The notes under the pieces are model-generated. The model did no database searches, was not told the origin of the DNA, and saw only the letters and a program-made list of their open reading frames with translations. Position numbers and translations under genes: made by a program. Below are positions 1-22,560 of a DNA stretch of 64,000 bases, piece by piece (position 1 is the first letter of the stretch; every line of letters starts with the position of its first letter). This DNA comes from Cyanobacteriota bacterium (lineage in GTDB: Bacteria > Cyanobacteriota > Cyanobacteriia > Cyanobacteriales > Nostocaceae), in assembly GCA_046045965.1 (NCBI GenBank), contig JBJOKS010000014.1, forward strand, positions 62,008 through 126,007. Direction: 5' to 3'.

Positions 1-1652
1 CAAAAAGTCAAAGATTCGAGAAATTTTTCATGCTCTTGACACCATGCAATTGCTGTTTGTAAATTATCATATTCAGCAACGAAGTAATCCATATACTCAT
101 ATTCATACCAATCTTTGTGATCCTTTTTTCTGTATCCTTGAGAAAATTCTAAATACCAATTAATCCATCTTTCTCTTGCTTGCTGCTCAAAAACAGGATT
201 ATTTGTTAATTCAGTAGATACATAATTACGAATTAGAGGTAAAGGAATTTCGTAACGATTTTCATCATACTTAATTAACAAGCGATCTTCTAATAATTGC
301 AAATCCTTGTTTATTTTATCATCATCTGTTACGGTAAGTGCAACATAAGCGATCGCATCTCGCAAAGCAGGTTTAGGAAACATCACCAAAGCCATTAATA
401 AATCATAAGCAGAAGCAGATTCTTCCTTTAATGATTTTAATAAAAATTCCTCTTTATTTGGCAATTTACTTAAACAATTATCATGCTGCAACTGATTCAG
501 AGCATCAATAATTAACCCCGGTATCCCACCAATAATATCTTTTATTTGTTGATATTGGTTTGGTGTAAGATTAACACTTAATTCTTGAGCTTTTTCTGTG
601 ATAAAAATTCTCGTGTCTTCTGCTGAGAGAATTTCCAGATGTAAAGGATGACCTAGCTTAGTTCTTCGACGTGATGTAATTAAGATTTTCACATTAGAAG
701 GCATTTGTTCAATTAGTGACTTAATATCTTGTTTATCTGCCTCAGTTTCCACATTATCTATAATTAACAGAGTATTGATGTTTTTAAATTTAGCAATAAT
801 CTTTTTTAAGAGTTGCTCTTGATTGGACTCATTAATAATTTTTTTCTTAATTTCCAAAGTAAGTGCAATGTCTTTATAAACATTCTCTAAATTAGATTCT
901 CGACTCTCACAATGTTGCTGTTGTTTAATAGAAGTAAAAATAAAAGCATCAAACATTGGTAAATCCAAGCTGTGATTACTCTTTCTAGCTTGTAAAAAAC
1001 GCAAAGCAGCTTCTTTTACTAGAGTAGTTTTACCAAAACCAGGCAAGGCAGTTATACTAATTATAGGTATATAAGGATTATCAATTAAGTTTAATAATTT
1101 TGTAACTTCTGTTTCCCTAGCAATAAAATTATTATAATTTTTGACTAAATTACTGTAAATAATATCTTTTCTGCTTTCTGCTAATTCTTGCCAATTTGTT
1201 AAACCTAAAACATGACAATAAGCTATAAAAGCAAGTTGATTAATGAATAAACCACGTACAAAGCTATTCCAAGTTCTATATGATATTCCCGTAAAATATA
1301 TTTTCCTGTCTTCTATTAAATCTTCTATAGTTTTATAGAAAGAAATTTTGCGTTTCTGTTGATTTTGAAAAAGTTTAATCTTTATCAGATTAAAAAGTCT
1401 GGCTCTTTCTGAATTAATCTTGGTTCTATCATCCTTACTTACGTTAACTAGAGGCACAAAATAATATTCAAGTTCGTTATACCATCTTTGATCATTTTCT
1501 CCCCAATTATTTTCCCTTGCATGTTGTGCCATTAAAAACTTGGAAGCTTCACGGAAAGGTGCATTTTCCATTGTATATTCTCTGTCTTGTCTAGCCGCTT
1601 CAACCTCTTTCCGTTTCCCTTCAAGTACCCTGAAAGTTTCCACTACAAGCAT
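1..1652 (-). CDS. NB-ARC/STAND ATPase with N-terminal HTH-like domain (partial, runs off the window start; absent from the ORF track)
   Basis: Manual translation from ATG 1652 is open to the window edge: MLVVETFRVLEGKRKEVEAARQ...GISYRTWNSFVRGYFINQLAFIAYCHVLGLTNWQELAE...FIARETE...ISITALPGFGKTT (Walker A)...LLIIDNVE (Walker B)...ILITSRRR...GGIPG (GxP-like)...ARERWINWYLEF. Confidence 0.85.
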   Translation of the reverse strand, partial: MLVVETFRVLEGKRKEVEAARQDREYTMENAPFREASKFLMAQHARENNWGENDQRWYNELEYYFVPLVNVSKDDRTKINSERARLFNLIKIKLFQNQQKRKISFYKTIEDLIEDRKIYFTGISYRTWNSFVRGLFINQLAFIAYCHVLGLTNWQELAESRKDIIYSNLVKNYNNFIARETEVTKLLNLIDNPYIPIISITALPGFGKTTLVKEAALRFLQARKSNHSLDLPMFDAFIFTSIKQQQHCESRESNLENVYKDIALTLEIKKKIINESNQEQLLKKIIAKFKNINTLLIIDNVETEADKQDIKSLIEQMPSNVKILITSRRRTKLGHPLHLEILSAEDTRIFITEKAQELSVNLTPNQYQQIKDIIGGIPGLIIDALNQLQHDNCLSKLPNKEEFLLKSLKEESASAYDLLMALVMFPKPALRDAIAYVALTVTDDDKINKDLQLLEDRLLIKYDENRYEIPLPLIRNYVSTELTNNPVFEQQARERWINWYLEFSQGYRKKDHKDWYEYEYMDYFVAEYDNLQTAIAWCQEHEKFLESLTF

Positions 1653-1673
1653 ATATAAACCCTGTTCCCTGAC

Positions 1674-1708
1674 CAAGATCACTTAGTATTCCATTTTAAC
1701 TGATCTTG
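1674..1708. promoter_or_regulatory. Palindromic operator-like site 1, CAAGATCAC-N17-CTGATCTTG
   Basis: Perfect 8-bp inverted repeat CAAGATCA/TGATCTTG between divergent genes; same motif at 2864 and 8343. Confidence 0.7.
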
Positions 1709-1774
1709 TTGGCTGCCAAGTCAATTGTGAAAATAAAAACAAGGTGTCTACATATATGTCAGGAGTTTACATTT

Positions 1775-2077
1775 ATGGCTCGTGTGGATTGGAATGGTCC
1801 GGTTTATCACTCTAAAAACGGGCGTTACTACTGCTATGGTACTGATAGGGATGGTAATAAGCATATTTTAGATGGGGATAGTCAGCGAGATTTGCAAGTA
1901 AATTATCTTGGTGAACTATCACCAGGTGGACTTCATGATCATCACTACACAAAAAACGGTAGGTGGTACACCCAGACACGAGTTGATACTGGACATCTAT
2001 TTAATGATGGTGGAGTTGCGAGCGATGCAGGTGGATATTTAGATCATCTGTTTGATGAGCTAAAAAGGTTAGGCTAA
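1775..2077 (+). CDS. Small (100 aa) hypothetical protein with an internal duplication
   Basis: AGGAG RBS precedes ATG 1775 (track start 1706 overlaps the operator); repeats YHSKNGRYY and HYTKNGRWY. Confidence 0.7.
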   Translation: MARVDWNGPVYHSKNGRYYCYGTDRDGNKHILDGDSQRDLQVNYLGELSPGGLHDHHYTKNGRWYTQTRVDTGHLFNDGGVASDAGGYLDHLFDELKRLG

Positions 2078-2125
2078 CTCTCAACTGATTATATACCGAG
2101 GATGTATCTATAAAACTAACCTAGT

Positions 2126-2149
2126 AGGGGTTTAGCATTGCTAAACCCT
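2126..2149. repeat. REP-like palindrome GGGTTTAGCATTGCTAAACCC
   Basis: Hairpin visible directly; degenerate copy at about 16138-16161. Confidence 0.6.
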
Positions 2150-2186
2150 CTAATCTTGAACAAAAATTATTTTACAGGTCAAGGAA

Positions 2187-2726
2187 ATGCACATAGCAAC
2201 CTCCCAGCGAAAATACATCTTTTTCTGTCTCTTCTGCATTAGTTCCTCACTCGTTATTAGTGGGTGTGCTAATACATCAATTGCCAAGCCTATTTCCGAA
2301 AGTGATCCTCTATTAACACAGAGGTCTTTAGCTCTTGTATTAACGATTATATTGGGATTTATACAACTTGGAATTTTATTGATTAAAAACCCCCAAGCTC
2401 CACAAGTTGGAGAGGCTTGGTTTCAGCAAAATATACCCTCAGTCATTGCAATTCCATTAATATGGTCAAAACTGGGTGAATGGGGTTATATGATTTCCAA
2501 TTGGTTATTCAACCTATGGAATCCTTTGGTGTTGATATTGGGATTTTTTAATGGTGTACTTGGAAATGTAGGACTAGCTCTATCTTGGATTGTATTATTT
2601 GGGTTTGTTTTCCCTTCACCAGATTTATTCGCTTGGGCAGTTTTACCAACATTAGCAGGTTTAATTGTCAACTTATTTTTACTAGCTTTTGCAAAAACTG
2701 GTAATAATGCAGGAGGTAATTCATAA
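2187..2726 (+). CDS. Hypothetical multi-pass membrane protein with possible lipoprotein signal
   Basis: Hydrophobic leader ending LVISG-C, followed by 4-5 hydrophobic segments. Confidence 0.7.
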   Translation: MHIATSQRKYIFFCLFCISSSLVISGCANTSIAKPISESDPLLTQRSLALVLTIILGFIQLGILLIKNPQAPQVGEAWFQQNIPSVIAIPLIWSKLGEWGYMISNWLFNLWNPLVLILGFFNGVLGNVGLALSWIVLFGFVFPSPDLFAWAVLPTLAGLIVNLFLLAFAKTGNNAGGNS

Positions 2727-2863
2727 ATACCTTGCATAGCAGAAATATAGTCAGGTTGGGTTAAGCAACAGCACAACCCAACTACAACTACAACTTTGAT
2801 TATTTTAGGGTTACTTGCTATAAGAAATAGCAATTATTCAATAGAGCAGTTTTTATAATTTGT

Positions 2864-2898
2864 CAAGATCACCAGTAACTAGCGCATAGGTGATCGGA
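2864..2898. promoter_or_regulatory. Palindromic operator-like site 2, CAAGATCAC-N17-GTGATCGGA
   Basis: GATCACC...GGTGATC inverted repeat with the same spacing as site 1; ends 66 nt before ATG 2965. Confidence 0.7.
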
Positions 2899-2964
2899 TT
2901 TTCTATATACAGAATTTGTGCAACGTGCCAAAATTATTACAACAATGAACCTTGAAAACAAAAT

Positions 2965-4044
2965 ATGACTTTGAACTTTGATAAAAAGCGTGAAGAAGGT
3001 TTCACAGAAGTATTGTTAGCACCTGTTAAAGCAATAATAGGTGATCCTAAAGAACTCTACGGTGAATATTACGTTACCGACGAGATCAAACAGTCTGCTA
3101 AAATTACAAATTCTGCAATTGTAATTAGTAACAATATTGACGGAATCAGTCTAATACCACTGCTGCAATTTTCTTTTTCTGATTGGGGCGATTACAGTCT
3201 ACCAGCAGCTATTTTTCTAGCTGCACTGATTACATATTTTGCCAATATCACTGGAACTGCTACAGCTAAACGCAAACCAGGTAATATTATTTGGTCAATG
3301 TCTGCTACTGCTGGTTTTCTAGCAATGAACGCACTCATGACTATGACTACACCAGTTGCTCCTGAACTCACTTTAAATCAACACGGACTAGCAGAAATGC
3401 GAGCTAAAGAATTAATTGAAATTAAGGAACAAGAAGTCAAGGAGAAGATTAAACCCAGTGCTGAAGGATTAGTAAAATTAAACCAAGTTGAAACCGAATG
3501 TAAACGTTTAGAAAATGAACTAAAAAAATACCCCAGAGGCAGTGTACAGCGTAATGATTTTTATATTAATGCCTATGGAGAATACAGCAAAGTTCGTAGT
3601 AATTATAACTGGAGTGCTGTTCCAGAAGGTAAAAGACCTGTATGTGCAAATGCCAAAATTTTAAATCAAGAAATTCGGGAATCAGCTATACAAGCACAAG
3701 AAATTTGGGCGCGTCAAAAGCAAAAAATTCTTCTTTCTGCTAGTTATGTAGTTGGTATTCGCAATACCTTACCTGAGCTTTATGAACAGGAGTTTAACGA
3801 AAAAGGAGAAGTAAATTCAGGAATAGTAAAAGCACGTTTAGCGATTGAAAGTACATATACTAAATTAGGACAAGGAGAGTGGACAAACTTAGGATTTAGT
3901 ATTTTTTGTTTTGCTTTATCTATCCTTACTTCCATCTTTTCTTGTGCTATGGCAATATCCCACTCTATGAGAAAAGATGTACAGATGAGTTTTGATGAAT
4001 CTTTACCTATTGCTCTGGAAGAGTTTTGTCAAAACGACTACTAA
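2965..4044 (+). CDS. Hypothetical membrane protein: N-terminal TMs, coiled-coil soluble domain, C-terminal TM (DUF4407-like architecture)
   Basis: Hydrophobic segments near aa 60-130 and 310-330 flank a charged helical region; family is inferred from architecture only. Confidence 0.7.
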   Translation: MTLNFDKKREEGFTEVLLAPVKAIIGDPKELYGEYYVTDEIKQSAKITNSAIVISNNIDGISLIPLLQFSFSDWGDYSLPAAIFLAALITYFANITGTATAKRKPGNIIWSMSATAGFLAMNALMTMTTPVAPELTLNQHGLAEMRAKELIEIKEQEVKEKIKPSAEGLVKLNQVETECKRLENELKKYPRGSVQRNDFYINAYGEYSKVRSNYNWSAVPEGKRPVCANAKILNQEIRESAIQAQEIWARQKQKILLSASYVVGIRNTLPELYEQEFNEKGEVNSGIVKARLAIESTYTKLGQGEWTNLGFSIFCFALSILTSIFSCAMAISHSMRKDVQMSFDESLPIALEEFCQNDY

Positions 4045-4162
4045 AATTACTCGGCTAATATTTAGCATTTATCGGGGAATCACGCCTGTAGATAAAATCA
4101 CATAGGCTGATTTTTTAACACTTAATTCAATTTTTTCTTTTTTTAGTTCAAGGGTAATCTAT

Positions 4163-4861
4163 ATGCGTGAAATGAATCCACAACGCCGGAATAATGTTGC
4201 TAATTTATACCCCGTTAATTATAAAGGTTATATTAGGATAGACGTTCTCAAGCTTTATTTGCAAACTGGTGAATGTAATGATCCTCGACTCAAGGGAATA
4301 TTACTCCGACTACATCAAGGGGAAACTTTACTTTCACCAAAAAAAGCAGAAGATTTGCTGAAAAAATTGTCTACAAGTTTAAAGTTGATTAATATAGTAA
4401 CATCAGAATTACTAGGAGAATCTATCCCGCAAGTAGAAGCACTAGGACAACTACAATGTGAAAATGAAAGCTTTTGCTTGGAGGTTGAGACAAAAATTAG
4501 AGAAAATTTGCAAGAATTAGATTTCTTTCTTAATCAATTGTTGGAAATTAACAAAAAGTATGGATATTTAGCTTATGATACTCAACCAAAAAAACATCCT
4601 CAGAATTTAGAAACATTTCAAGAGAACTTAGATGAATCTAAAGAATTAGTGAAAACAATTTCTTATATTCAGCGTTATCTCAATTATCAATTTAATACAA
4701 CTCAATCATTATTTGACCGCACTGCTTACCCTTTAGCCTATTTTCTAAGGATTCGCAAATATTTGGAGATATTACCAGGAGAATGTCGGAGTTTAGCAGC
4801 TATAACTCGTCAAGCTATAGCAAACCGTGTTCCAGGAACTGAATCTGATAATTTAACTTGA
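4163..4861 (+). CDS. Hypothetical helical protein
   Basis: 232-aa ORF, Leu/Glu-rich, adjoining or overlapping the next gene. Confidence 0.7.
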   Translation: MREMNPQRRNNVANLYPVNYKGYIRIDVLKLYLQTGECNDPRLKGILLRLHQGETLLSPKKAEDLLKKLSTSLKLINIVTSELLGESIPQVEALGQLQCENESFCLEVETKIRENLQELDFFLNQLLEINKKYGYLAYDTQPKKHPQNLETFQENLDESKELVKTISYIQRYLNYQFNTTQSLFDRTAYPLAYFLRIRKYLEILPGECRSLAAITRQAIANRVPGTESDNLT

Positions 4862-5523
4862 AGGAATTTAACTATATGTTTAGAGGGTTAAGAAAACAAT
4901 TAAATCGCCCTAGTAGAAAAAATTTTGCAGTAAATACAAGTTTACACACATCAATCACAACTCTTACAGATGACCAATTTAAACAGCAGTTCAACAATGG
5001 TAAGAGAAACTTTTCCGGTTGTGATTTTCGTCAGGTTAGAAATCATACTTTAAGAGAAGTTTCACTTCATGAAGCTAATTTGAATCAGGCTATTTTTAGT
5101 GGAATGCAACTGAATAAAATTAATTTTGAAAATGCTAGTCTTTATCAAGCAAAATTTGTAGGTGCTAACCTAGCAGGAGCGAATTTAATTAGAGCAAATT
5201 TGAGTGAAGCTGACTTATCTAATGCTAACTTGGCAGATGCTTATCTAATTAATGCCAATTTATCAGAAGGTTGTTTGTATAAAGCGCAACTTCATTGTGC
5301 TAACTTAATGGGTGCAAATTTGAGTTATGCTAACTTAAATTCTTGTAGTTTAACCTGGGCAGATTTGAGTGCAACTACTCTATGTTGGGCTGATTTACGC
5401 AACACTAATTTAAGTGATGCTGACCTTTATGGTGCAGATTTACAACACGCTGATTATGGTTTTACAACTATTATCAAATCACGGATTCAAGGTTTAATCA
5501 CTCTCAATAAGAAAACCAGATGA
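4858..5523 (+). CDS. Pentapeptide repeat protein (start may be ATG 4876)
   Basis: A(N/D)LxG/A pentapeptide repeats such as ANLAGANLIRANLSEADLSNANL. Confidence 0.9.
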   Translation: MKEFNYMFRGLRKQLNRPSRKNFAVNTSLHTSITTLTDDQFKQQFNNGKRNFSGCDFRQVRNHTLREVSLHEANLNQAIFSGMQLNKINFENASLYQAKFVGANLAGANLIRANLSEADLSNANLADAYLINANLSEGCLYKAQLHCANLMGANLSYANLNSCSLTWADLSATTLCWADLRNTNLSDADLYGADLQHADYGFTTIIKSRIQGLITLNKKTR

Positions 5524-5557
5524 CAAAATAATCTAGCAATTCTCAAACCTTGGAGAA

Positions 5558-5585
5558 GTAGAGATGTTGTATACAATATCTCTGC
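5558..5585. repeat. REP-like palindrome between convergent genes (possible terminator)
   Basis: GTAGAGATGTTGTATACAATATCTCTGC imperfect hairpin. Confidence 0.5.
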
Positions 5586-5602
5586 TCCATCAACAGATAT
5601 TT

Positions 5603-6946
5603 TTATTTTATAAACAACCGTCTTCTTTCCTGAATCAACACTTTAAATAATGCCACTATTCCATAAATACCTAAATTCCTAATCAATCTCAACCACTCAA
5701 ATAAATTAGCTGATTTCTTCCTATGTATTCTCACTAAATGCACACCAGCATCCGCAGCAGTATTTATGTATTTTTTCATTTTAGCTATTTTTAACAATTT
5801 TAAAAATTCATGAATCGCATTATCCCAATCTCCTAAATATTCATAAATTCTCGCTCTATTTGCTAATACATTAGCTAACTTCTTTTCATTAAAATCTATT
5901 TGGAGAAAAAGCTTTTCCGCTTTATCTAAATAAGTATATGCTGCTGAAAAATCAGGATTTTTGCATTTCATAGCAACAGCACCAGCTAACAAATAAATAG
6001 TCCCTTCTGATTCAGGATATGCAGCTTGAGTAAATCCACTGGTTGTTTCTTTGGTTTCTGTAAATTTAGTAATTGCTGTTTCTAATAACCTGCGGGATTC
6101 ATCAAAATTACCTTTTTTATATTCCAACCAACCCAAACCATAAAAAATCAAAGATAAAAAATATAAATTACCCGTACTTTCAGAAACTTCTTTACCTTCA
6201 ATAAAAGTTAATTCTGCTTTAGCTAAATCATTGACGTTCAAATAAGCAACACCTAAACTATACAAAACCCTACCTAAATCAAAAATATTACCAAGCTTCC
6301 GTAAAATATCAGCAGCTTCTAAATAACTAGATATAGCTTTTTTACTTTGATCAAATCTATCATAGCAACTCCCTAAATTCAGCAAAGTATTTGCTTGCTG
6401 ATAAAGATTATTTTGTTGTTGAAATAAATCTAATGCTTGTTGTAAATGCCATTCTGCTTCTTGAGATTTTTGTGAACGTTGTAGAGTAATACCTGCACCT
6501 AAATGGTTAAAAGCTAAAAATTCCTGATTATCAAATACACGACTAGCTAAAATTCCTTGTTCATGATATTTCAACGATTCTGTAAATTGACCTTTTTCTT
6601 CTAAATAACGTCCTAAAGCACAAAATAACCATGAACCATCTTTATCCACACCTTTAGCAATTTCTTGTTGTACCCAATTTCCCCAATCTCGATAATCTTG
6701 ACTAACTTCACAATAGTAAAATAAGGCTTGACAAAATTTACGCTGGTTAATATTATTAACATCATCAATCATATTATCAAACACAGCACGAAAATCTTGA
6801 ATAACTTGGTTGATATCAATATTTGCTGAACTGTGATTACCAAACAGAAGTTGATTATATTGATAAGCTTGAGTTACCCAGTGATCTGATAATTCATCGT
6901 CAGACGACTTGAAAAAAGCACGCACATCAAAAAGATTATTACTCAT
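5603..6946 (-). CDS. Tetratricopeptide repeat protein, putative sensor partner of the upstream STAND ATPase
   Basis: Multiple TPR-like units (ANTLLNLGSCY, GRVLYSLGVAY, LIFYGLGWLEY); start overlaps the STAND stop by 8 nt. Confidence 0.85.
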   Translation of the reverse strand: MSNNLFDVRAFFKSSDDELSDHWVTQAYQYNQLLFGNHSSANIDINQVIQDFRAVFDNMIDDVNNINQRKFCQALFYYCEVSQDYRDWGNWVQQEIAKGVDKDGSWLFCALGRYLEEKGQFTESLKYHEQGILASRVFDNQEFLAFNHLGAGITLQRSQKSQEAEWHLQQALDLFQQQNNLYQQANTLLNLGSCYDRFDQSKKAISSYLEAADILRKLGNIFDLGRVLYSLGVAYLNVNDLAKAELTFIEGKEVSESTGNLYFLSLIFYGLGWLEYKKGNFDESRRLLETAITKFTETKETTSGFTQAAYPESEGTIYLLAGAVAMKCKNPDFSAAYTYLDKAEKLFLQIDFNEKKLANVLANRARIYEYLGDWDNAIHEFLKLLKIAKMKKYINTAADAGVHLVRIHRKKSANLFEWLRLIRNLGIYGIVALFKVLIQERRRLFIK

Positions 6947-8285
6947 ATTGTTCCCTCAAAGTTTCTCCAAAATAACGAGCGGTAAAAGAGTGTAAAGAAA
7001 CTTGTTTATTAGAACCAATAGGAGTAATTTCAATCAACGAAAGCTGATATAACTTTCTAATTGATTCATCAACAACTTGACTAGATAAACCTCCTAAGCC
7101 ATATAATATACGAATAGGTACTGGTCTAGACCTCGTAGCTAAATACAGCAGCAACTTTTGAGTATTAATTGCATTTTCTTGTTGTAATTCTTGCCAGTTA
7201 TCTTCAAACAAATAATTATATAATTGTTGTTCTTCTGATAAATTTTGCAACCGTTGAATAATTCTATCTATATCTAATTTACCAGCTTGACTGACCACTA
7301 ATTTCATCGCTAGTGGCATACCATCAGTAATTTTAACCAGTTCATCAATTTCTCCTGGCGTGGCTTTGAGAATCGGATTTTGACTAGGTAGTAAATATTT
7401 TTCTTCAGAAATGACTTGAATAAATTCTCTTGATACCTTTTGATTTAATTTAGATAATGCCAATTCTGTAACATCAGCATCTATTCTTCGACGACTGGTG
7501 ATAATTAAAGAACTTTTTCCTAAAATACTTTGTAATTCTGCTGCTAAGACTCTAGGACTTTCGGCATCTTCTAAACCATCAATAACTATTAACCAAGGAT
7601 GTGAATTAAGAATTCTAGTAATTTCTATTCTGAGTAAATCTGGTTGTAACAAGATATGATTTGGTAATTGTAGCTCTTTACCTATTTCTTGTAAAGCATC
7701 CTCAAATGATAAACGATAAGCCCGATGAGATGCTAATTCTCCTAAACCTTCTGATTGATATTGATATATTTTTGCCCTTACCCAAGCAATTTTTGTAAAT
7801 ATTTTTTTATGATAAGCTTGAGATACTAACTGATGACAAAAAGCAGTTTTTCCTAATCCTCCAATACCCGTAATACTAAATATTGTAGATTGGTTTTTTG
7901 ATTCTAATACCTGAAGAATCTCTTGTAAATCATCACTACGTCCAATAAATTGTTGATATTTTTTCTCTAGTTGCCAAGTTAATAAATTTGATGTGTGTTC
8001 TGTGTCTTCATCATCATTTTCTACTTCTAACATTGCTAAGGGATCAGTATCAACAATATCCTCCCAATTTTCAATCCCTACAGCTTTACAGATACCAATA
8101 AAAGCATCTCTATTTACTGCTTTCCCTCTTCGGAAACGCCCTAATGTTGGTTCAGAAACATTAATACCAGCAATATCACTAGCAATATCACACCATGAAA
8201 GTGATCTTGCTGTCCAGCCCTTCTTTTTTCTCTCTATTTCAACTTTTTCTAAACCTTCTTGAGATGCTTTGAGAGTAACTGCCAT
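6939..8285 (-). CDS. NB-ARC/STAND ATPase with N-terminal HTH-like domain, lacking C-terminal repeats
   Basis: FIGR motif, GIGGLGKT Walker A, LIVIDGLE Walker B, IITSRRR, GMPLAM, terminal LHS (MHD-like); N-terminus VSEPTLGRFRRGKAVNRDAFIGICKAVGIENWEDIVD. Confidence 0.9.
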   Translation of the reverse strand: MAVTLKASQEGLEKVEIERKKKGWTARSLSWCDIASDIAGINVSEPTLGRFRRGKAVNRDAFIGICKAVGIENWEDIVDTDPLAMLEVENDDEDTEHTSNLLTWQLEKKYQQFIGRSDDLQEILQVLESKNQSTIFSITGIGGLGKTAFCHQLVSQAYHKKIFTKIAWVRAKIYQYQSEGLGELASHRAYRLSFEDALQEIGKELQLPNHILLQPDLLRIEITRILNSHPWLIVIDGLEDAESPRVLAAELQSILGKSSLIITSRRRIDADVTELALSKLNQKVSREFIQVISEEKYLLPSQNPILKATPGEIDELVKITDGMPLAMKLVVSQAGKLDIDRIIQRLQNLSEEQQLYNYLFEDNWQELQQENAINTQKLLLYLATRSRPVPIRILYGLGGLSSQVVDESIRKLYQLSLIEITPIGSNKQVSLHSFTARYFGETLREQYE

Positions 8286-8342
8286 ATTGATCCTAGTATT
8301 TTTATGTAATTTCAGAAATGGATACTACTTCTCATTCTTTGT

Positions 8343-8377
8343 CAAGATCACAAACAATCCTATTTTAGCTGATCGTG
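8343..8377. promoter_or_regulatory. Palindromic operator-like site 3, CAAGATCAC-N17-CTGATCGTG
   Basis: Between the divergent STAND and PEP-CTERM genes; shares TTTGTCAAGATCAC with site 2 and ATTTTA(A/G)CTGATC with site 1. Confidence 0.7.
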
Positions 8378-8565: not shown

Positions 8566-9522
8566 ATGAAAAAGTCAACATTTTTAACTTACGGTTCTAG
8601 CCTAGTAATAGCTACAAGTTTAGCATTCACGAGTGGACAAATAGCGGCAGCAGGACAGAATATCAATGGTTGGAATAAGTCAATAGACTCCAACAATGAT
8701 AGTTTGTCTAGAACTCCTGGAACTGACATATTTGAAATGTATGTGATGGGAACAAAAGAAGATGAACAATTTTTCTATGTAGCAATTAATGGCAACTTAC
8801 CTGTCACAGGTTTAGATACTGGAAATCAAGTATGCAATACAAGCACTGGGCAATGTTTTAATGTTAGTAACCAAAACATTGGTTATGGTGATTTATTCCT
8901 AGATTTTTCTGGTCAAAATAACTTTCTCAATGCTAGTAATTCTCGTAGTTTAATAGGTGTGAGATTTGCTCCTAATAACGATTCTAAAGTTTCTGGTACA
9001 GGTATTTTTGATTATGTAAAAGCTACAGATGTGGAAAGAGAAAACGCTGGTTATTGGAACTTCGGAACTCACAATCAAATTGTTACTCAACAAGGTGGTA
9101 CTGCATCATTAGGAGATTTAGCTTGGGATGATCCTTATTATGCACCATATAATGGTTCTTTTACCTCAAATCCTATCCCTAATGTAATTGAATCAGGTAA
9201 TAAAATAGGTGATATTACCATGTTAAATAGTGCAGAATTAGCTGCTGCCGGATTTGATTTAAGTTCTTTATCTCAAATAGGTTCAGAAACTTTTGGTTTC
9301 AAGTTTTCCAAATCTCTGTTACCTATTGGTAAATATCTTGCTACTTTGATTTTGGAATGTAATAATGATGCGATCGCACTCCGAGGAGAAACAACTAAAA
9401 TAACTGTACAACCTCCACAAGAAGTACCTGAACCTTCTACTATTTTTGGAATCATGACAACAGCGTTAATTTTTGCAGCAACCAAATTTGGTAAACTCCG
9501 TAAATTTGAATTGAGTAAATAG
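8566..9522 (+). CDS. PEP-CTERM exosortase-dependent surface protein (resembles the cyanobacterial XDD3 type)
   Basis: Signal peptide; C-terminal VPEPSTIFG + TM + basic tail; core motifs YVAINGNLP, IGYGDLF, ECNNDAIAL. Confidence 0.85.
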   Translation: MKKSTFLTYGSSLVIATSLAFTSGQIAAAGQNINGWNKSIDSNNDSLSRTPGTDIFEMYVMGTKEDEQFFYVAINGNLPVTGLDTGNQVCNTSTGQCFNVSNQNIGYGDLFLDFSGQNNFLNASNSRSLIGVRFAPNNDSKVSGTGIFDYVKATDVERENAGYWNFGTHNQIVTQQGGTASLGDLAWDDPYYAPYNGSFTSNPIPNVIESGNKIGDITMLNSAELAAAGFDLSSLSQIGSETFGFKFSKSLLPIGKYLATLILECNNDAIALRGETTKITVQPPQEVPEPSTIFGIMTTALIFAATKFGKLRKFELSK

Positions 9523-12609: not shown

Positions 12610-15600
12610 TAACTCGCTGGACAGTATTCTTGAATGACTTTCACATCCAAGGTTGTGTTTTGCAGGGAACGAATTGCAGCGACAGTGGCTTTAGCACCAG
12701 CGATGGTAGTGATGATAGGAATTTTGTAAGCTAAGGCTGTACGACGGATTAACCGCCCATCAGTATGGGCTTCTTCCCCAGAAGGTGTATTGATGATAAT
12801 TTGGATTTGTTGATTTTTGATGGCATCAAGAACATGAGGACGGCCTTCATGGAGTTTAAGTATTGACTCAATCTTTAAGCCTTGTTCCTGAAGGAATTGG
12901 CGTGTACCTTGGGTAGCGATGATGTTGAAACCCAGGTTGATAAATTCTTTCACCACATCTACGGCCAGGGATTTATCGCGATCGCTCATGGAAACAAATA
13001 CAGTACCCTGGAGAGGTAGCTTTTCTCCTGCACCCATTTCTGCTTTCGCAAAAGCACGACCAAAATCGCTATCAATTCCCATCACTTCCCCTGTTGAGCG
13101 CATTTCTGGTCCCAAGATCGTATCTGTACCAGGGAATTTACCAAAGGGTAAAACTGCTTCCTTCACCGCAATATGAGAGGGAATGACTTCTTGTGTAAAG
13201 TTCAACTCCTCTAAGGTTTTACCCGACATAATTAAGGATGCTAATTTTGCCAGTTGTACACCTGTAGCTTTAGAAACAAAAGGCACAGTGCGAGATGCTC
13301 TGGGGTTAGCTTCCAAAATGTAGACTTGGGGAGAATAACCATTTGCACCGACTACCGCAAATTGAATATTCATCAAACCCACAACAGACAGAGCTTGTGC
13401 TAGTTGGACTGTCCAAGTTCTAATTTGGTTGAGAACGGCTGGAGATAGGGAAATAGAAGGTAAGGAACAGGCCGAATCTCCTGAGTGAATACCCGCTTGT
13501 TCTATGTGTTCCATAATGCCACCAATCACGACTCTGCCAGTATGGTCAGCGATCGCATCCACATCAACTTCAATGGCATTTTCTAAGAACTTATCAATTA
13601 AAATCGGGTGTTCCGGTTCTACCTGCACTGCAAAAGTCATGTAGCGTTCTAACTCAGCATCAGAATAGACGATTTCCATCGCTCTTCCCCCCAAAACATA
13701 GCTAGGACGCACCACCACAGGATAACCAATGCGTTTAGCAACAATTAAAGCATCTTCATAACTTCTGGCGATACCATTAGGCGGTTGAGCAATATTTAAT
13801 TTGTTGAGAATCTTTTCAAATCGCTCCCGGTTTTCTGCCATGTCGATAGAATCGGGGGATGTACCCCAAATTTGGGTGATTGGGGACTGGGGACTGGGGA
13901 CTGGGGACTGGGATAATTGCTGTAGGTAGTGTTGTAATGGTACGGCTAATTTTAGGGGTGTTTGTCCACCGAACTGGACGATGATACCAACGGGGTTTTC
14001 GGTGTCGATGATATTGAGAACGTCTTCTTTGGTTAACGGTTCAAAATACAAGCGATCGCTGGTATCATAATCTGTAGAAACTGTTTCAGGATTAGAGTTA
14101 ACCATGATTGTTTCATATCCTGCACCATGTAAAGCATAAGCAGCATGACAACAACAATAATCAAACTCAATTCCTTGACCAATGCGGTTTGGACCTCCAC
14201 CCAAAATCATCACCTTGGGTTTGGTGGTGGCTAAAACTTCCGTTTCTGCTTCGTAGGTGGAATAGTAATAAGGAGTCAGAGCTTCAAACTCAGCCGCGCA
14301 GGTATCCACAGTTTTGTAAACTGGAATCACGCCTAAATTTTTGCGGTATGCTCGGACTTCATCTTCGTTGGTTTTAGTAGCGTAGGCAATTTGGCGATCG
14401 CTAAACCCATCCCTTTTCACAGCATACATTTGCTCTTTTGTCAACTGTTTTAAGGGCGTGCGTTTCAGGAATTTCTCCACTTCTAGCAGTTGTTGTAATT
14501 TATCTAAAAACCACGGGTCAATAGCCGTTAGTTCATAGATTTCTTCATTACTCATTCCTAGTTGCATCGCATGACGCACTGCAAAGATACGTTCTGGGTT
14601 TGGTGTCCGCAATTGAGCGCGAATTTGTTCACCACTCGGTAATTTTTCGGCTTTGTCACAACCCCAACCAGCGCGACCGGTTTCTAGAGAACGCAAAGCT
14701 TTTTGGAAAGATTCGTTAAATGTCCTGCCAATGGCCATTGCTTCCCCAACAGACTTCATTTGGGTAGTGAGTACAGGTTCAGAACCAGGGAATTTTTCAA
14801 ACGCAAACCGGGGAATTTTTGTCACCACATAGTCAATAGTCGGTTCAAAGGAAGCGGGGGTTTTCTTGGTGATATCGTTTTGCAGTTCATTCAAGGTGTA
14901 ACCCACAGCTAACTTAGCCGCTATTTTGGCAATAGGAAAACCTGTAGCTTTAGAAGAAAGGGCGGAACTGCGGGATACACGGGGGTTCATTTCAATGACG
15001 ACTACATCCCCGTTGACGGGATTTACGGCAAACTGAATATTAGAACCGCCAGTTTCTACACCAATTTCGCGGATAATTTTAATCGCCATATCCCGCAACC
15101 GTTGATATTCTTTATCGGTGAGGGTTTGGGCGGGGGCGACGGTGATAGAATCGCCTGTGTGAATACCCATTGGGTCGAGGTTTTCGATGGAACAGATAAT
15201 AACAACGTTATCTGCTAAGTCACGCATGACTTCTAGTTCATATTCTTTCCAACCTAACAAAGATTGGTCAATGAGAATCTGCGACACGGGACTGGCATCA
15301 ATCCCTACTTGTGCCATTTCTTCAAATTCTTCTTTGTTATAGGCTATACCGCCTCCTGTACCACCCATTGTAAAGGCTGGACGGATAATTAAGGGATATG
15401 TACCAATTCGCTGTGCGATCGCTTTCGACTCTTCTAAAGTTGAAGCTGTACCACTAGGACAAACTTTCACCCCAATTTTATCCATCGCTTCGTTAAACAG
15501 TTTCCGGTCTTCCGCTTTTTCAATCGCTGGTAATTTAGCACCAATTAACTCAACGTTATATTTATCCAAAACACCATTTTTCGCCAAAGCTACAGCGAGG

Positions 15601-21260: not shown

Positions 21261-22475
21261 TTGTTACCAGTGCTGAAACAAGATTACATGCAAGTTTCCC
21301 AGGATCAGCCTATCTATTCTGAGGCTCCACTCCAGCTGTTGCTGTTTGTCGATGGACGGCCAAAGTCCCGGCAACAGGTACAGCGAATACGCTCTTACTT
21401 AAGAGAATTAGAAGCAGAGTATAGTTTTGAACTGCAAATTATTGATGTCGGGCAACAACCGTATTTAGCGGAACATTTTAAATTGGTAGCAACGCCCGCT
21501 TTAATCAAAATTCATCCAGAACCTCAACAGACTCTGGCTGGAAGTAACATCATAGCCCAATTGCAAAACTGGTGGCCTCGTTGGCAAACTGCTGTAGACT
21601 TATTTTTAAAGTTACAGGAAGACTTGCAAGATCGTAGAGATGAAAATGTTCGGGTAACATCACCCACATCTACAATACATTCTGTCGCTGTTTCTGCGGA
21701 GTTGATTAAGCTTTCAGATGAAATTTTTCACTTGAAGCAGGAAAAAGAGAAACTTCAAGAACAGTTGCAATTTAAAGACCGGGTGATGTCAATGCTGGCG
21801 CACGACCTCCGTAATCCTTTAACTGCTGCTGCAATAGCTATAGAAACGCTTCAGAATAACTATAATGCAGAGAAGGGAGAGTTTCAACGTCTGAAACCAG
21901 GAATGGCGGAACATTTATTAAAACAAGCCCGTAGTCAAACACGAATAATTGATCGGATGGTTGCTGACCTGTTGCAAGTAGGAAGAGGTAATGATAAACA
22001 GTTCAACATCATACCGCAAAAGTTGGAATTAGGGAAACTAACCTATGAAATATTGGAAGAATTACGCGATCGCTATACTAATAAATCTCAGAAAGTAGAA
22101 ACAGATATCCCCAATGACTTACCCTGTGTATATGCAGATCCAGAGCGCATTCGCCAAGTTTTGGTAAATCTGTTGGATAACGCCATTAAATATACGCCAG
22201 AGGGAGGCATGATTAGTTTAGCGGGACTGCACCGCACAACCCAAAAAGTGCAGTTTAGTATTGGTGATACTGGTCCTGGTATTCCCCAGGAAAACCGCGA
22301 TCGCATCTTTGAAAATCATTTCCGTCTCCAACGGGATGAAGGAACAGATGGTTATGGAATTGGTCTGGCTTTATGCCAACGCATTATTCTAGCGCATTAT
22401 GGTCAAATTTGGGTAGATTCCAACCCTCATGGTGGCGCATGGTTCCATTTTACTTTACCAGTTTATCCATCTTAA
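21261..22475 (+). CDS. sasA: Circadian output histidine kinase SasA (true start probably 21270 or 21288)
   Basis: KaiB-like N-terminus ([15 protein letters not shown]), [10 protein letters not shown]-box, HATPase_c. Confidence 0.93.
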
Positions 22476-22480
22476 TTATT

Positions 22481-22560
<80 letters not shown>

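Follow-up and report, generated by a model that had tools for sequence, protein, structure and literature searches.

Introduction

Proteins that join a helix-turn-helix (HTH) domain to a STAND ATPase are usually discussed as NLR-like defence or signalling proteins. We analysed a stretch of 64,000 nt from the genome of a cyanobacterium of the family Nostocaceae (the window; its source genome, assembly G000, has 5.29 Mb), in which three inverted repeats with GATC half-sites (sites 1, 2 and 3) lie in an island with HTH-STAND genes, and compared them with the operators of described regulators.

The closest described system is that of XssQ (Slr5058; Synechocystis sp. PCC 6803, pSYSM), which according to the available passages of its description is an activator needed for transcription of its targets and binds its consensus, AAGTTXXAC, in electrophoretic mobility shift assays (PMC8205485). 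The preliminary description of the window knew of no described cyanobacterial regulon with its motif; the XssQ regulon, of the same protein family, is described in these passages with a different consensus (PMC8205485). XssQ is the only characterised member that we found for an HTH domain present in 131 of the 301 genomes searched in the order. In both systems a homologous N-terminal HTH domain is carried by a STAND ATPase whose gene is divergent from a target (xssP for XssQ, a presumed one here), and the available passages also give XssQ single or tandem sites near target promoters and a small local regulon with cell-surface genes. In comparisons with XssQ the HTH family profile gave E 1.4e-12, S2 1.7e-6, S3 6.3e-5 and the S1-clade profile 8.7e-8 (S1, S2 and S3 are the HTH-STAND proteins of the island). 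The differences are that XssQ, as far as these passages go, recognises AAGTTXXAC, contains a NACHT core and acts together with XssS/XssR, whereas S1 and S2 have NB-ARC and TPR parts and the window sites are inverted GATC arrays, and that the HTH of S1 contains a long helical insert. AAGTTXXAC is not contained in the three window sites, and neither an XssS/XssR-type two-component pair nor sulfated exopolysaccharide genes were found among the island proteins scanned. The target promoters of XssQ (L090:24020-24075, 22457-22490 and 14388-14400) continue beyond AAGTTXXAC as TA[A/G/T]AC-like repeats, at steps of about 11 bp, a phased layout as in the GATC arrays.

MalT of E. coli has its DNA-binding domain, of the LuxR type, at the C-terminus. 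It is a STAND activator, and its ligand-induced oligomer binds several promoter sites cooperatively, according to the part of the source available (PMC10427625). The repeat-type sensor and the multiple phased sites per promoter, seen here in the arrays of homologues, are alike in both; in the present proteins, however, the HTH is an N-terminal one of XRE type, the C-termini are TPR or absent, and the site is different. XRE/Cro regulators bind compact palindromes as small dimers, and their operators overlap the regulator's own promoter. With these (HipB, the controller proteins of restriction-modification systems, P22 c2, SinR) the proteins described here share the fold of the DNA-binding head and the predicted overlap of operator and own promoter, but here 23-35 bp separate the inverted half-sites and the head is joined to an ATPase. 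Bacterial NLR-related anti-phage proteins have a STAND core, a repeat sensor, many cyanobacterial paralogues and HTH among their domains, as described in the available passages (bioRxiv 10.1101/2022.07.19.500537); those passages give no operator, and the output here appears in contrast to be transcriptional.

In the literature searched we found neither GATC nor GGCTCA/TGAGCC operators described, nor any connection of such operators with HTH clades, and Fig. 3B, Fig. 4 supplement 2 and Supplementary file 3 of the XssQ paper may show further consensus sites. Two further sources mention homologues of XssQ and give no new motif in the parts available (PMC12267927; bioRxiv 10.64898/2025.12.18.694786). 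Cyanobacterial HTH-STAND transcription factors are thus already known through XssQ, with another motif.

Three non-random sites in the window

The three sites are non-random. The preliminary description had reported three 35-bp sites with an identical left arm, CAAGATCAC, and a spacer of 17 nt in each, and all three were confirmed at the positions of Table 1. Its claim that the window holds no further full copy also held: allowing up to two mismatches we found 5 matches, which are the three sites and two on the other strand, and 100 shuffles of the window gave a mean of 0.12 matches, none reaching the observed 5. The pattern GATCA[CG]-N17-[CG]TGATC occurs five times in the 5.29 Mb assembly, three of these in the window. 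Arm symmetry is 8/9, 6/9 and 7/9 for sites 1, 2 and 3. A longer left arm, TTTGTCAAGATCAC, is common to sites 2 and 3, and ATTTTA stands at an equal spacer position in sites 1 (1693-1698) and 3 (8362-8367). As described before, the end of site 1 is 66 nt from ATG 1775 and that of site 2 is 66 nt from ATG 2965; we tried this distance as a rule and rejected it, and because site 3 ends 188 nt before ATG 8566 it is probably a coincidence.

Half-sites upstream of homologues

Upstream regions of homologues were collected by protein search. After own-genome loci, eight loci from the motif search, regions below 200 nt, duplicates and six frames without a placed N-terminus had been left out, 200 loci remained, and these were clustered at 80% HTH identity into 113 representatives. 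By the recognition helix the representatives form two clades, SxGTW, which includes S1, and SxATL. An inverted GATC pair was found in 28 of 49 SxGTW representatives, with a GCTCA/TGAGC array in one; in the SxATL clade there was no GATC pair (0/61), and 27 of 61 had the GCTCA type (GGCTCA/TGAGCC). Shuffles gave at most 2. At 65% identity the counts were 14/26 (GATC) and 0/26 (GCTCA) for SxGTW, and 0/44 and 16/44 for SxATL. Within SxGTW, the pair was present in 28/42 where the third residue of the helix is Gly or Arg, and in 0/7 where it is another residue. Counted on these homologue loci, the half-site type follows the HTH clade. The motif, whose conservation upstream of homologues had been named earlier as a check, is present upstream of S1-clade genes across the order.

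Among homologues the operator mostly takes the form of an array. Its GATC cores stand at offsets 0, 10-11, 23-26 and 34-35, and direct repeats at steps of 10-13 bp are included; the window sites keep two clear half-sites. The spacer, which had been taken as fixed at N17, is only modal among homologues, a start-to-start distance of 25 bp (equal to N17) being the commonest from left to right (8/28). The earlier idea that the wide spacing suits an oligomerising regulator fits these phased arrays, which would suit an oligomer. Inverted symmetry in a variable island might also mark RNA hairpins or recombination sites, but we regard this as barely credible, given the direct-repeat arrays, the position of the sites away from the island ends and the lack of an Rfam match in five loci tested.

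In homologues the consensus of the left flank, TGTCAA, agrees with sites 2 and 3. Its reverse complement, TTGACA, was tried as the -35 box of the STAND gene and rejected: in many homologues it lies only 11-21 nt before the start codon, and it is also present at site 2, where there is no leftward gene.

Several further features were seen among the homologues. Some SxATL operators are expanded to long tandem TGAGCC arrays at 9-12 bp steps with at least eight copies (L186, L188, L192, L196, L018, L025), and the copy number varies between close relatives. Where the helix has Arg as its second residue (SRSTL, SRPTL, TRPTL; four related loci, L016, L017, L019 and L021), the half-sites are GACTCA/TGAGTC, possibly a third specificity class. 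A large SEGTW subclade (HTH-NB-ARC with a long C-terminus; L057, L122, L128, L140, L147, L153) keeps the GATC operator, and the divergent gene after it encodes a glutathione S-transferase or a pyridoxamine-phosphate-oxidase-like protein. Another palindrome, GTTGGCCAAC or GTTAGCGCTAAC, is also conserved. It stands in the leader of the divergent gene, directly after the predicted -10 box, and in many cases CTTCTCCT and a ribosome site of GGAGA type come next; it was seen in the S3 intergenic region (L001:10310-10320) and at L016, L017, L021, L043, L046, L062, L063, L079, L171, L263 and L264, and may be an RNA leader element, although Rfam gave no match in five loci tested.

From the motif to the gene

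In the reverse direction, TGTCAAGATC-N21-GATC matched 24 times in 300 other genomes, and its reversed control 8 times. Eight of the 24 precede an HTH-STAND gene, oriented as in the window; four of these are among the loci used for choosing the pattern and four are new. A matrix trained on 28 loci of other genomes ranked sites 1, 3 and 2 first in G000 (scores 28.1, 25.8 and 24.1), the next site having 22.4 and the maxima of three shuffled genomes 22.1-22.4, in a test that is only partly independent, its cores and spacing range having been set by hand. The genome-wide scan proposed in the preliminary description thus places the three top-scoring sites in the island, which indicates that strong matrix sites are absent elsewhere in G000.

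Taken as comparisons of sequence, these results make it very probable that the three sites are operators of an HTH-STAND regulator. Several points weigh on the other side. The remaining 16 of the 24 pattern matches have no HTH-STAND neighbour, and 21 of the 49 GATC-clade representatives have no pair by the pattern used. The patterns were written after the sequences had been seen and also served to select the loci for training the matrix; the clade counts and the matrix test are therefore partly circular. The contrast between clades is a single phylogenetic split, and for both reasons the Fisher values of the clade counts are too strong.

At L081, L082 and L077 there are intergenic GATC arrays with no HTH-STAND gene next to them, in the first two with a pentapeptide-repeat gene downstream; they may mark outlying members of a regulon, comparable to site 2. 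Throughout G000, GATC pairs separated by 23 nt are overrepresented (128, neighbouring gaps having about 30-85), which probably reflects a repeat family with no relation to the operators.

Operators of the agn43/pap type are gated by Dam methylation. Every half-site of the three sites contains GATC, and a methyltransferase of the Dam family, scoring above the curated cut-off, is encoded in the genome, its specificity being inferred from the family. DmtA methylates GATC and is nearly universal in these cyanobacteria, according to the passages available (PMC4390886). Methylation gating of binding is possible; the GCTCA sister clade has the same layout with no GATC. The Dam-family enzyme and the widespread DmtA methylation would also fit sites that are read by another host protein, or matter chiefly as methylated GATC clusters, with the STAND genes as mere targets. 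We consider this very unlikely, since a host regulon should have sites elsewhere and the top three are all in the island, and since the half-site becomes a non-GATC word with the HTH clade while the layout is unchanged.

The N-terminal domain and the probable reader of the sites

The N-terminal domains of the STAND proteins had been called HTH-like, and predicted structures (predicted local distance difference test 88.6 for S2 and 94.2 for S1) together with a fold search specify this as an HTH of XRE/Cro type. The top matches of the S1 and S2 heads were HipB, controller (C) proteins, P22 c2 and HigA2, all of them weak. In the predicted models the domain is of the four/five-helix XRE/Cro fold. 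With E-values up to 0.1, Pfam HTH_26 matched 23 of the 57 members of the family, S2 being below the cut-off, and the HTH profile gave nothing below E 0.2 against PDB sequences. As to the STAND core, NB-ARC is above the Pfam cut-off in S1 and S2, with Walker A GFGKT/GLGKT and Walker B LLIIDN/LIVIDG. Two results are less favourable: no fold-search match had a Foldseek E below 0.001 or a Z above 5.8, and the N-terminus of S1 alone gave no significant match to XssQ (E 0.025).

The preliminary description had the sites bound by the heads of both STAND proteins of the window. The link to HTH-STAND proteins is supported by the homologue loci; the two do not appear to be equal candidates. S1 falls together with SYRTW proteins from Microcoleus and Tychonema (L092-L094), each of which has a GATC pair, in operators of the form GTCAAGATCAG...TGATCGTG. 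Its orthologue in another genome of the family, G470 (45% identity over 714 aa), keeps the site as TGTCAAGGATCAG...ATTTTAGCTGATC, and the last 13 nt of that operator (ATTTTAGCTGATC) equal site 3. The S2 orthologue in G470 (75%) has no GATC pair within 330 nt upstream, a more distant relative of S2 (57%) has GGCTCA upstream, and a metagenome scan with the S2 HTH gave three loci, all of GCTCA/GACTCA type. Since S1 falls in the GATC clade with the site kept at its orthologue, and S2 falls outside it with a siteless orthologue, S1 appears the likeliest binder, and on balance we favour it as the main binder of all three sites.

Other observations speak against this choice. In other genomes each HTH-STAND gene normally has its own upstream operator, which favours S2 at site 3. 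An unfinished quick tree of 71 columns sets S2, S3 and the S2 orthologue apart as a small group (support 87). S3, too, has an array of GATC type, and the branch of S1 is long. The helix of the S2 orthologue has Gly at the third position, typical of GATC binders. Each STAND protein might thus read its own operator, S1 at sites 1 and 2, S2 at site 3 and S3 at its own array, the S2/S3 lineage having shifted to GATC; the island would then be three parallel cassettes with possible cross-talk and not a hierarchy. One operator per cassette is the family pattern, S2 and S3 are mutual best HTH matches (48%) and both lack Lys/Arg before RF while having GATC arrays, and homologues of the PEP-CTERM gene that is divergent from S2 are paired elsewhere with SxATL-type STAND genes. 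Set against this are the upstream regions of the S2 orthologue and of its 57% relative, the absence of GATC pairs from the SxATL representatives, and site 3 itself, which besides the 13 nt in common with the S1-orthologue operator has 14 nt in common with site 2. We hold separate reading by each protein to be a tentative alternative, and continue with S1 as the favoured binder.

Promoters and proposed mechanism

Predicted -10 boxes of the S1 and S2 promoters lie inside the spacers of sites 1 and 3 (Table 1); TAAAAT is absent from the spacer of site 2, where there is no leftward gene. A TAAAAT-like hexamer was found within 8/28 GATC-type and 10/23 GCTCA-type homologue operators, where 2.2 and 1.0 were expected for this pattern picked by eye. 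Such a -10 hexamer inside the operator suggests autorepression of the regulator's promoter. In homologues, a weak nAnnnT hexamer follows the last half-site on the plus strand at about 23-28 nt. In the closest relatives of S1, CATTGT stands 23 nt past the right GATC, and candidate hexamers of the window sites, seen by eye, are at 20-22 nt; the right half-site would therefore lie near the -35 position, as for an activator. Judged from this geometry, S1 probably represses the STAND promoters and activates the divergent genes (the PEP-CTERM protein and the C3a124 operon). XssQ, an activator that shares the HTH and whose gene is divergent from a target, lends support to this.

By analogy with XssQ and MalT, a ligand at the TPR sensor of S1 would lead to ADP/ATP exchange and oligomerisation, and the oligomer would lay several HTH heads on phased half-sites. 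At sites 1 and 3 the half-sites flanking the -10 box that faces the STAND gene would bring repression of S1 and S2, and the right half-site near the -35 of a weak divergent promoter would bring activation; site 2 would have the activating side alone. The island regulon of S1 would then comprise S1, S2 with its TPR partner, the PEP-CTERM protein, two orphan open reading frames (ORF) and the C3a124 operon. In two RNA runs, which were not used as evidence, exact contigs of the first (X1) cover 1397-1673 and 1746-2101 and leave site 1 bare, as expected of divergent promoters, and two 151-nt records of the second (X2; 1542-1692 and 1684-1834) enter site 1.

Island, site 2 and the C3a124 operon

The sites lie within a low-GC stretch of about 16 kb (GC 0.31-0.36 in most 1-kb bins and 0.38 in one; flanks 0.38-0.45), bounded by a CBS-domain gene and a NUDIX gene. 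A same-genus genome has a TPR remnant alone at this locus, and in another family member a different STAND gene adjoins the NUDIX gene; the island locus is therefore variable. In a whole-island DNA search of 300 family genomes, a large part of the island was found only in G470.

The preliminary description counted two STAND ATPases in the island; there are three HTH-STAND genes, the third (S3) lying left of the window. S1, S2 and S3 are the only three significant matches to their N-terminal domain in the assembly, and each is divergent from a presumed target gene. The intergenic region of S3 has its own GGATCAG/TGATCC array about 1.8 kb before window base 1. At an E-value of 1e-5 PADLOC gave no match for S1 or S2 and a partial match of S3 to an Xre-HTH/STAND/TPR model. 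The gene divergent from S3 (L001:10402-10971) encodes a GRDP-like protein, and at L062 and L236 members of this family are likewise divergent from HTH-STAND genes. The S2-type NB-ARC core with its split TPR partner carries other N-terminal domains elsewhere (L003, L004, L270, L271), that is, heads are swapped on one core. PEP-CTERM homologues stand beside SxATL-type HTH-STAND genes at L172, L226, L239 and L241, three of them with visible GCTCA...TGAGCC operators.

Table 1. Putative operators, predicted promoter elements and genes in the window
Feature	Position	Strand	Remarks
Putative operator site 1	1674-1708 (drawn 1670..1708)		between S1 (ATG 1652) and divergent ORF (1775); GATC cores 1677, 1702
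Putative operator site 2 (TGTCAAGATCAC...GTGATC)	2864-2898 (drawn 2861..2898)		upstream of C3a124 operon; leftward gene absent
Putative operator site 3	8343-8377 (drawn 8340..8377)		between S2 (ATG 8285) and PEP-CTERM gene
Predicted -10 box TAAAAT of S1 promoter	1693..1698	-	inside site 1 spacer; from sequence
Predicted -10 box TAAAAT of S2 promoter	8362..8367	-	inside site 3 spacer; from sequence, inferred
Candidate weak -10 box AATTGT for divergent ORF	1723..1728	+	21 nt after right GATC; by eye, inferred
S1, 5' part	1..1652	-	812-aa XRE-HTH (helical insert) + NB-ARC + TPR; helix ISYRTWNSF; gene extends beyond window
100-aa ORF divergent from S1	1775..2077	+	no family match; no homologue in fetched loci
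179-aa hydrophobic ORF	2187..2726	+	probably membrane; no family match
C3a124-family membrane protein	2965..4044	+	first gene after site 2; PADLOC PDLC01074, E 1.1e-61
Partner ORF of C3a124 operon	4163..4861	+	homologue adjoins or fused with C3a124 in 4/30 loci
Pentapeptide-repeat protein, third gene of C3a124 operon	4876..5523	+	Pfam PF00805; pentapeptide gene downstream of C3a124 in 16/30 loci
Stand-alone TPR protein, split sensor of S2	5603..6946	-	same gene pair in L003, L004, G470
S2	6939..8285	-	448-aa XRE-HTH + NB-ARC; helix VSEPTLGRF
XDD3-family PEP-CTERM surface protein, divergent from S2	8566..9522	+	NCBIfam NF041930, E 4.6e-54; TIGR02595

Site 2 stands before an operon whose first gene belongs to the C3a124 family, which the passages available describe as accessory cluster 124 of type III-B CRISPR, its function unknown (PMC6546367). 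The family profile matches 44 of 281 order genomes, and the site-2 protein itself was not found in 200 family genomes by single-protein query. The ESM Atlas gave unnamed clusters alone for the ORF at 2965 and nothing reliable for that at 4163. C3a124, partner and pentapeptide gene (window 2965-5523; L278-L307) form a conserved cyanobacterial operon, whose first two genes are fused in L305-L307 and which in L287 follows an HTH-STAND gene on the same contig. Neither operator type was found upstream of its homologues in the 30 loci fetched of 56 listed, and for this reason site 2 looks like a local gain. The same absence, together with the mosaic make-up of the island at a variable locus, would also fit a true S1 operator at site 1 only, sites 2 and 3 being passive copies of an S1-type promoter left by recombination during assembly of the island. 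This is unlikely in our view: the spacers and flanks vary but the arms and their distance are constant, as expected under selection on a binding site, and all three copies are intergenic and in the same direction relative to the downstream gene.

Implications

In its widest form the proposal would make S1 an NLR-like transcriptional immune switch, in which an infection or envelope cue leads to an oligomer on GATC arrays and a mobile island is reprogrammed, that is, a second NLR-like regulator, a PEP-CTERM surface protein and a C3a124 CRISPR-accessory operon newly recruited via site 2, with Dam-methylation gating as a possible addition and a helix-to-operator code across the family. We put this forward as speculation and regard it as doubtful in full. 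The two clade-specific operator types name targets, and their layout predicts autorepression together with divergent activation, so that a fusion of operator and reporter would be a ready assay for inducers of bacterial NLR-like sensors. With site 2 before an operon whose 30 examined homologues have no such site, the window may show the growth of a regulon under way. If the helix-to-operator code is true, the regulons of the large HTH-STAND family would be predictable from sequence.

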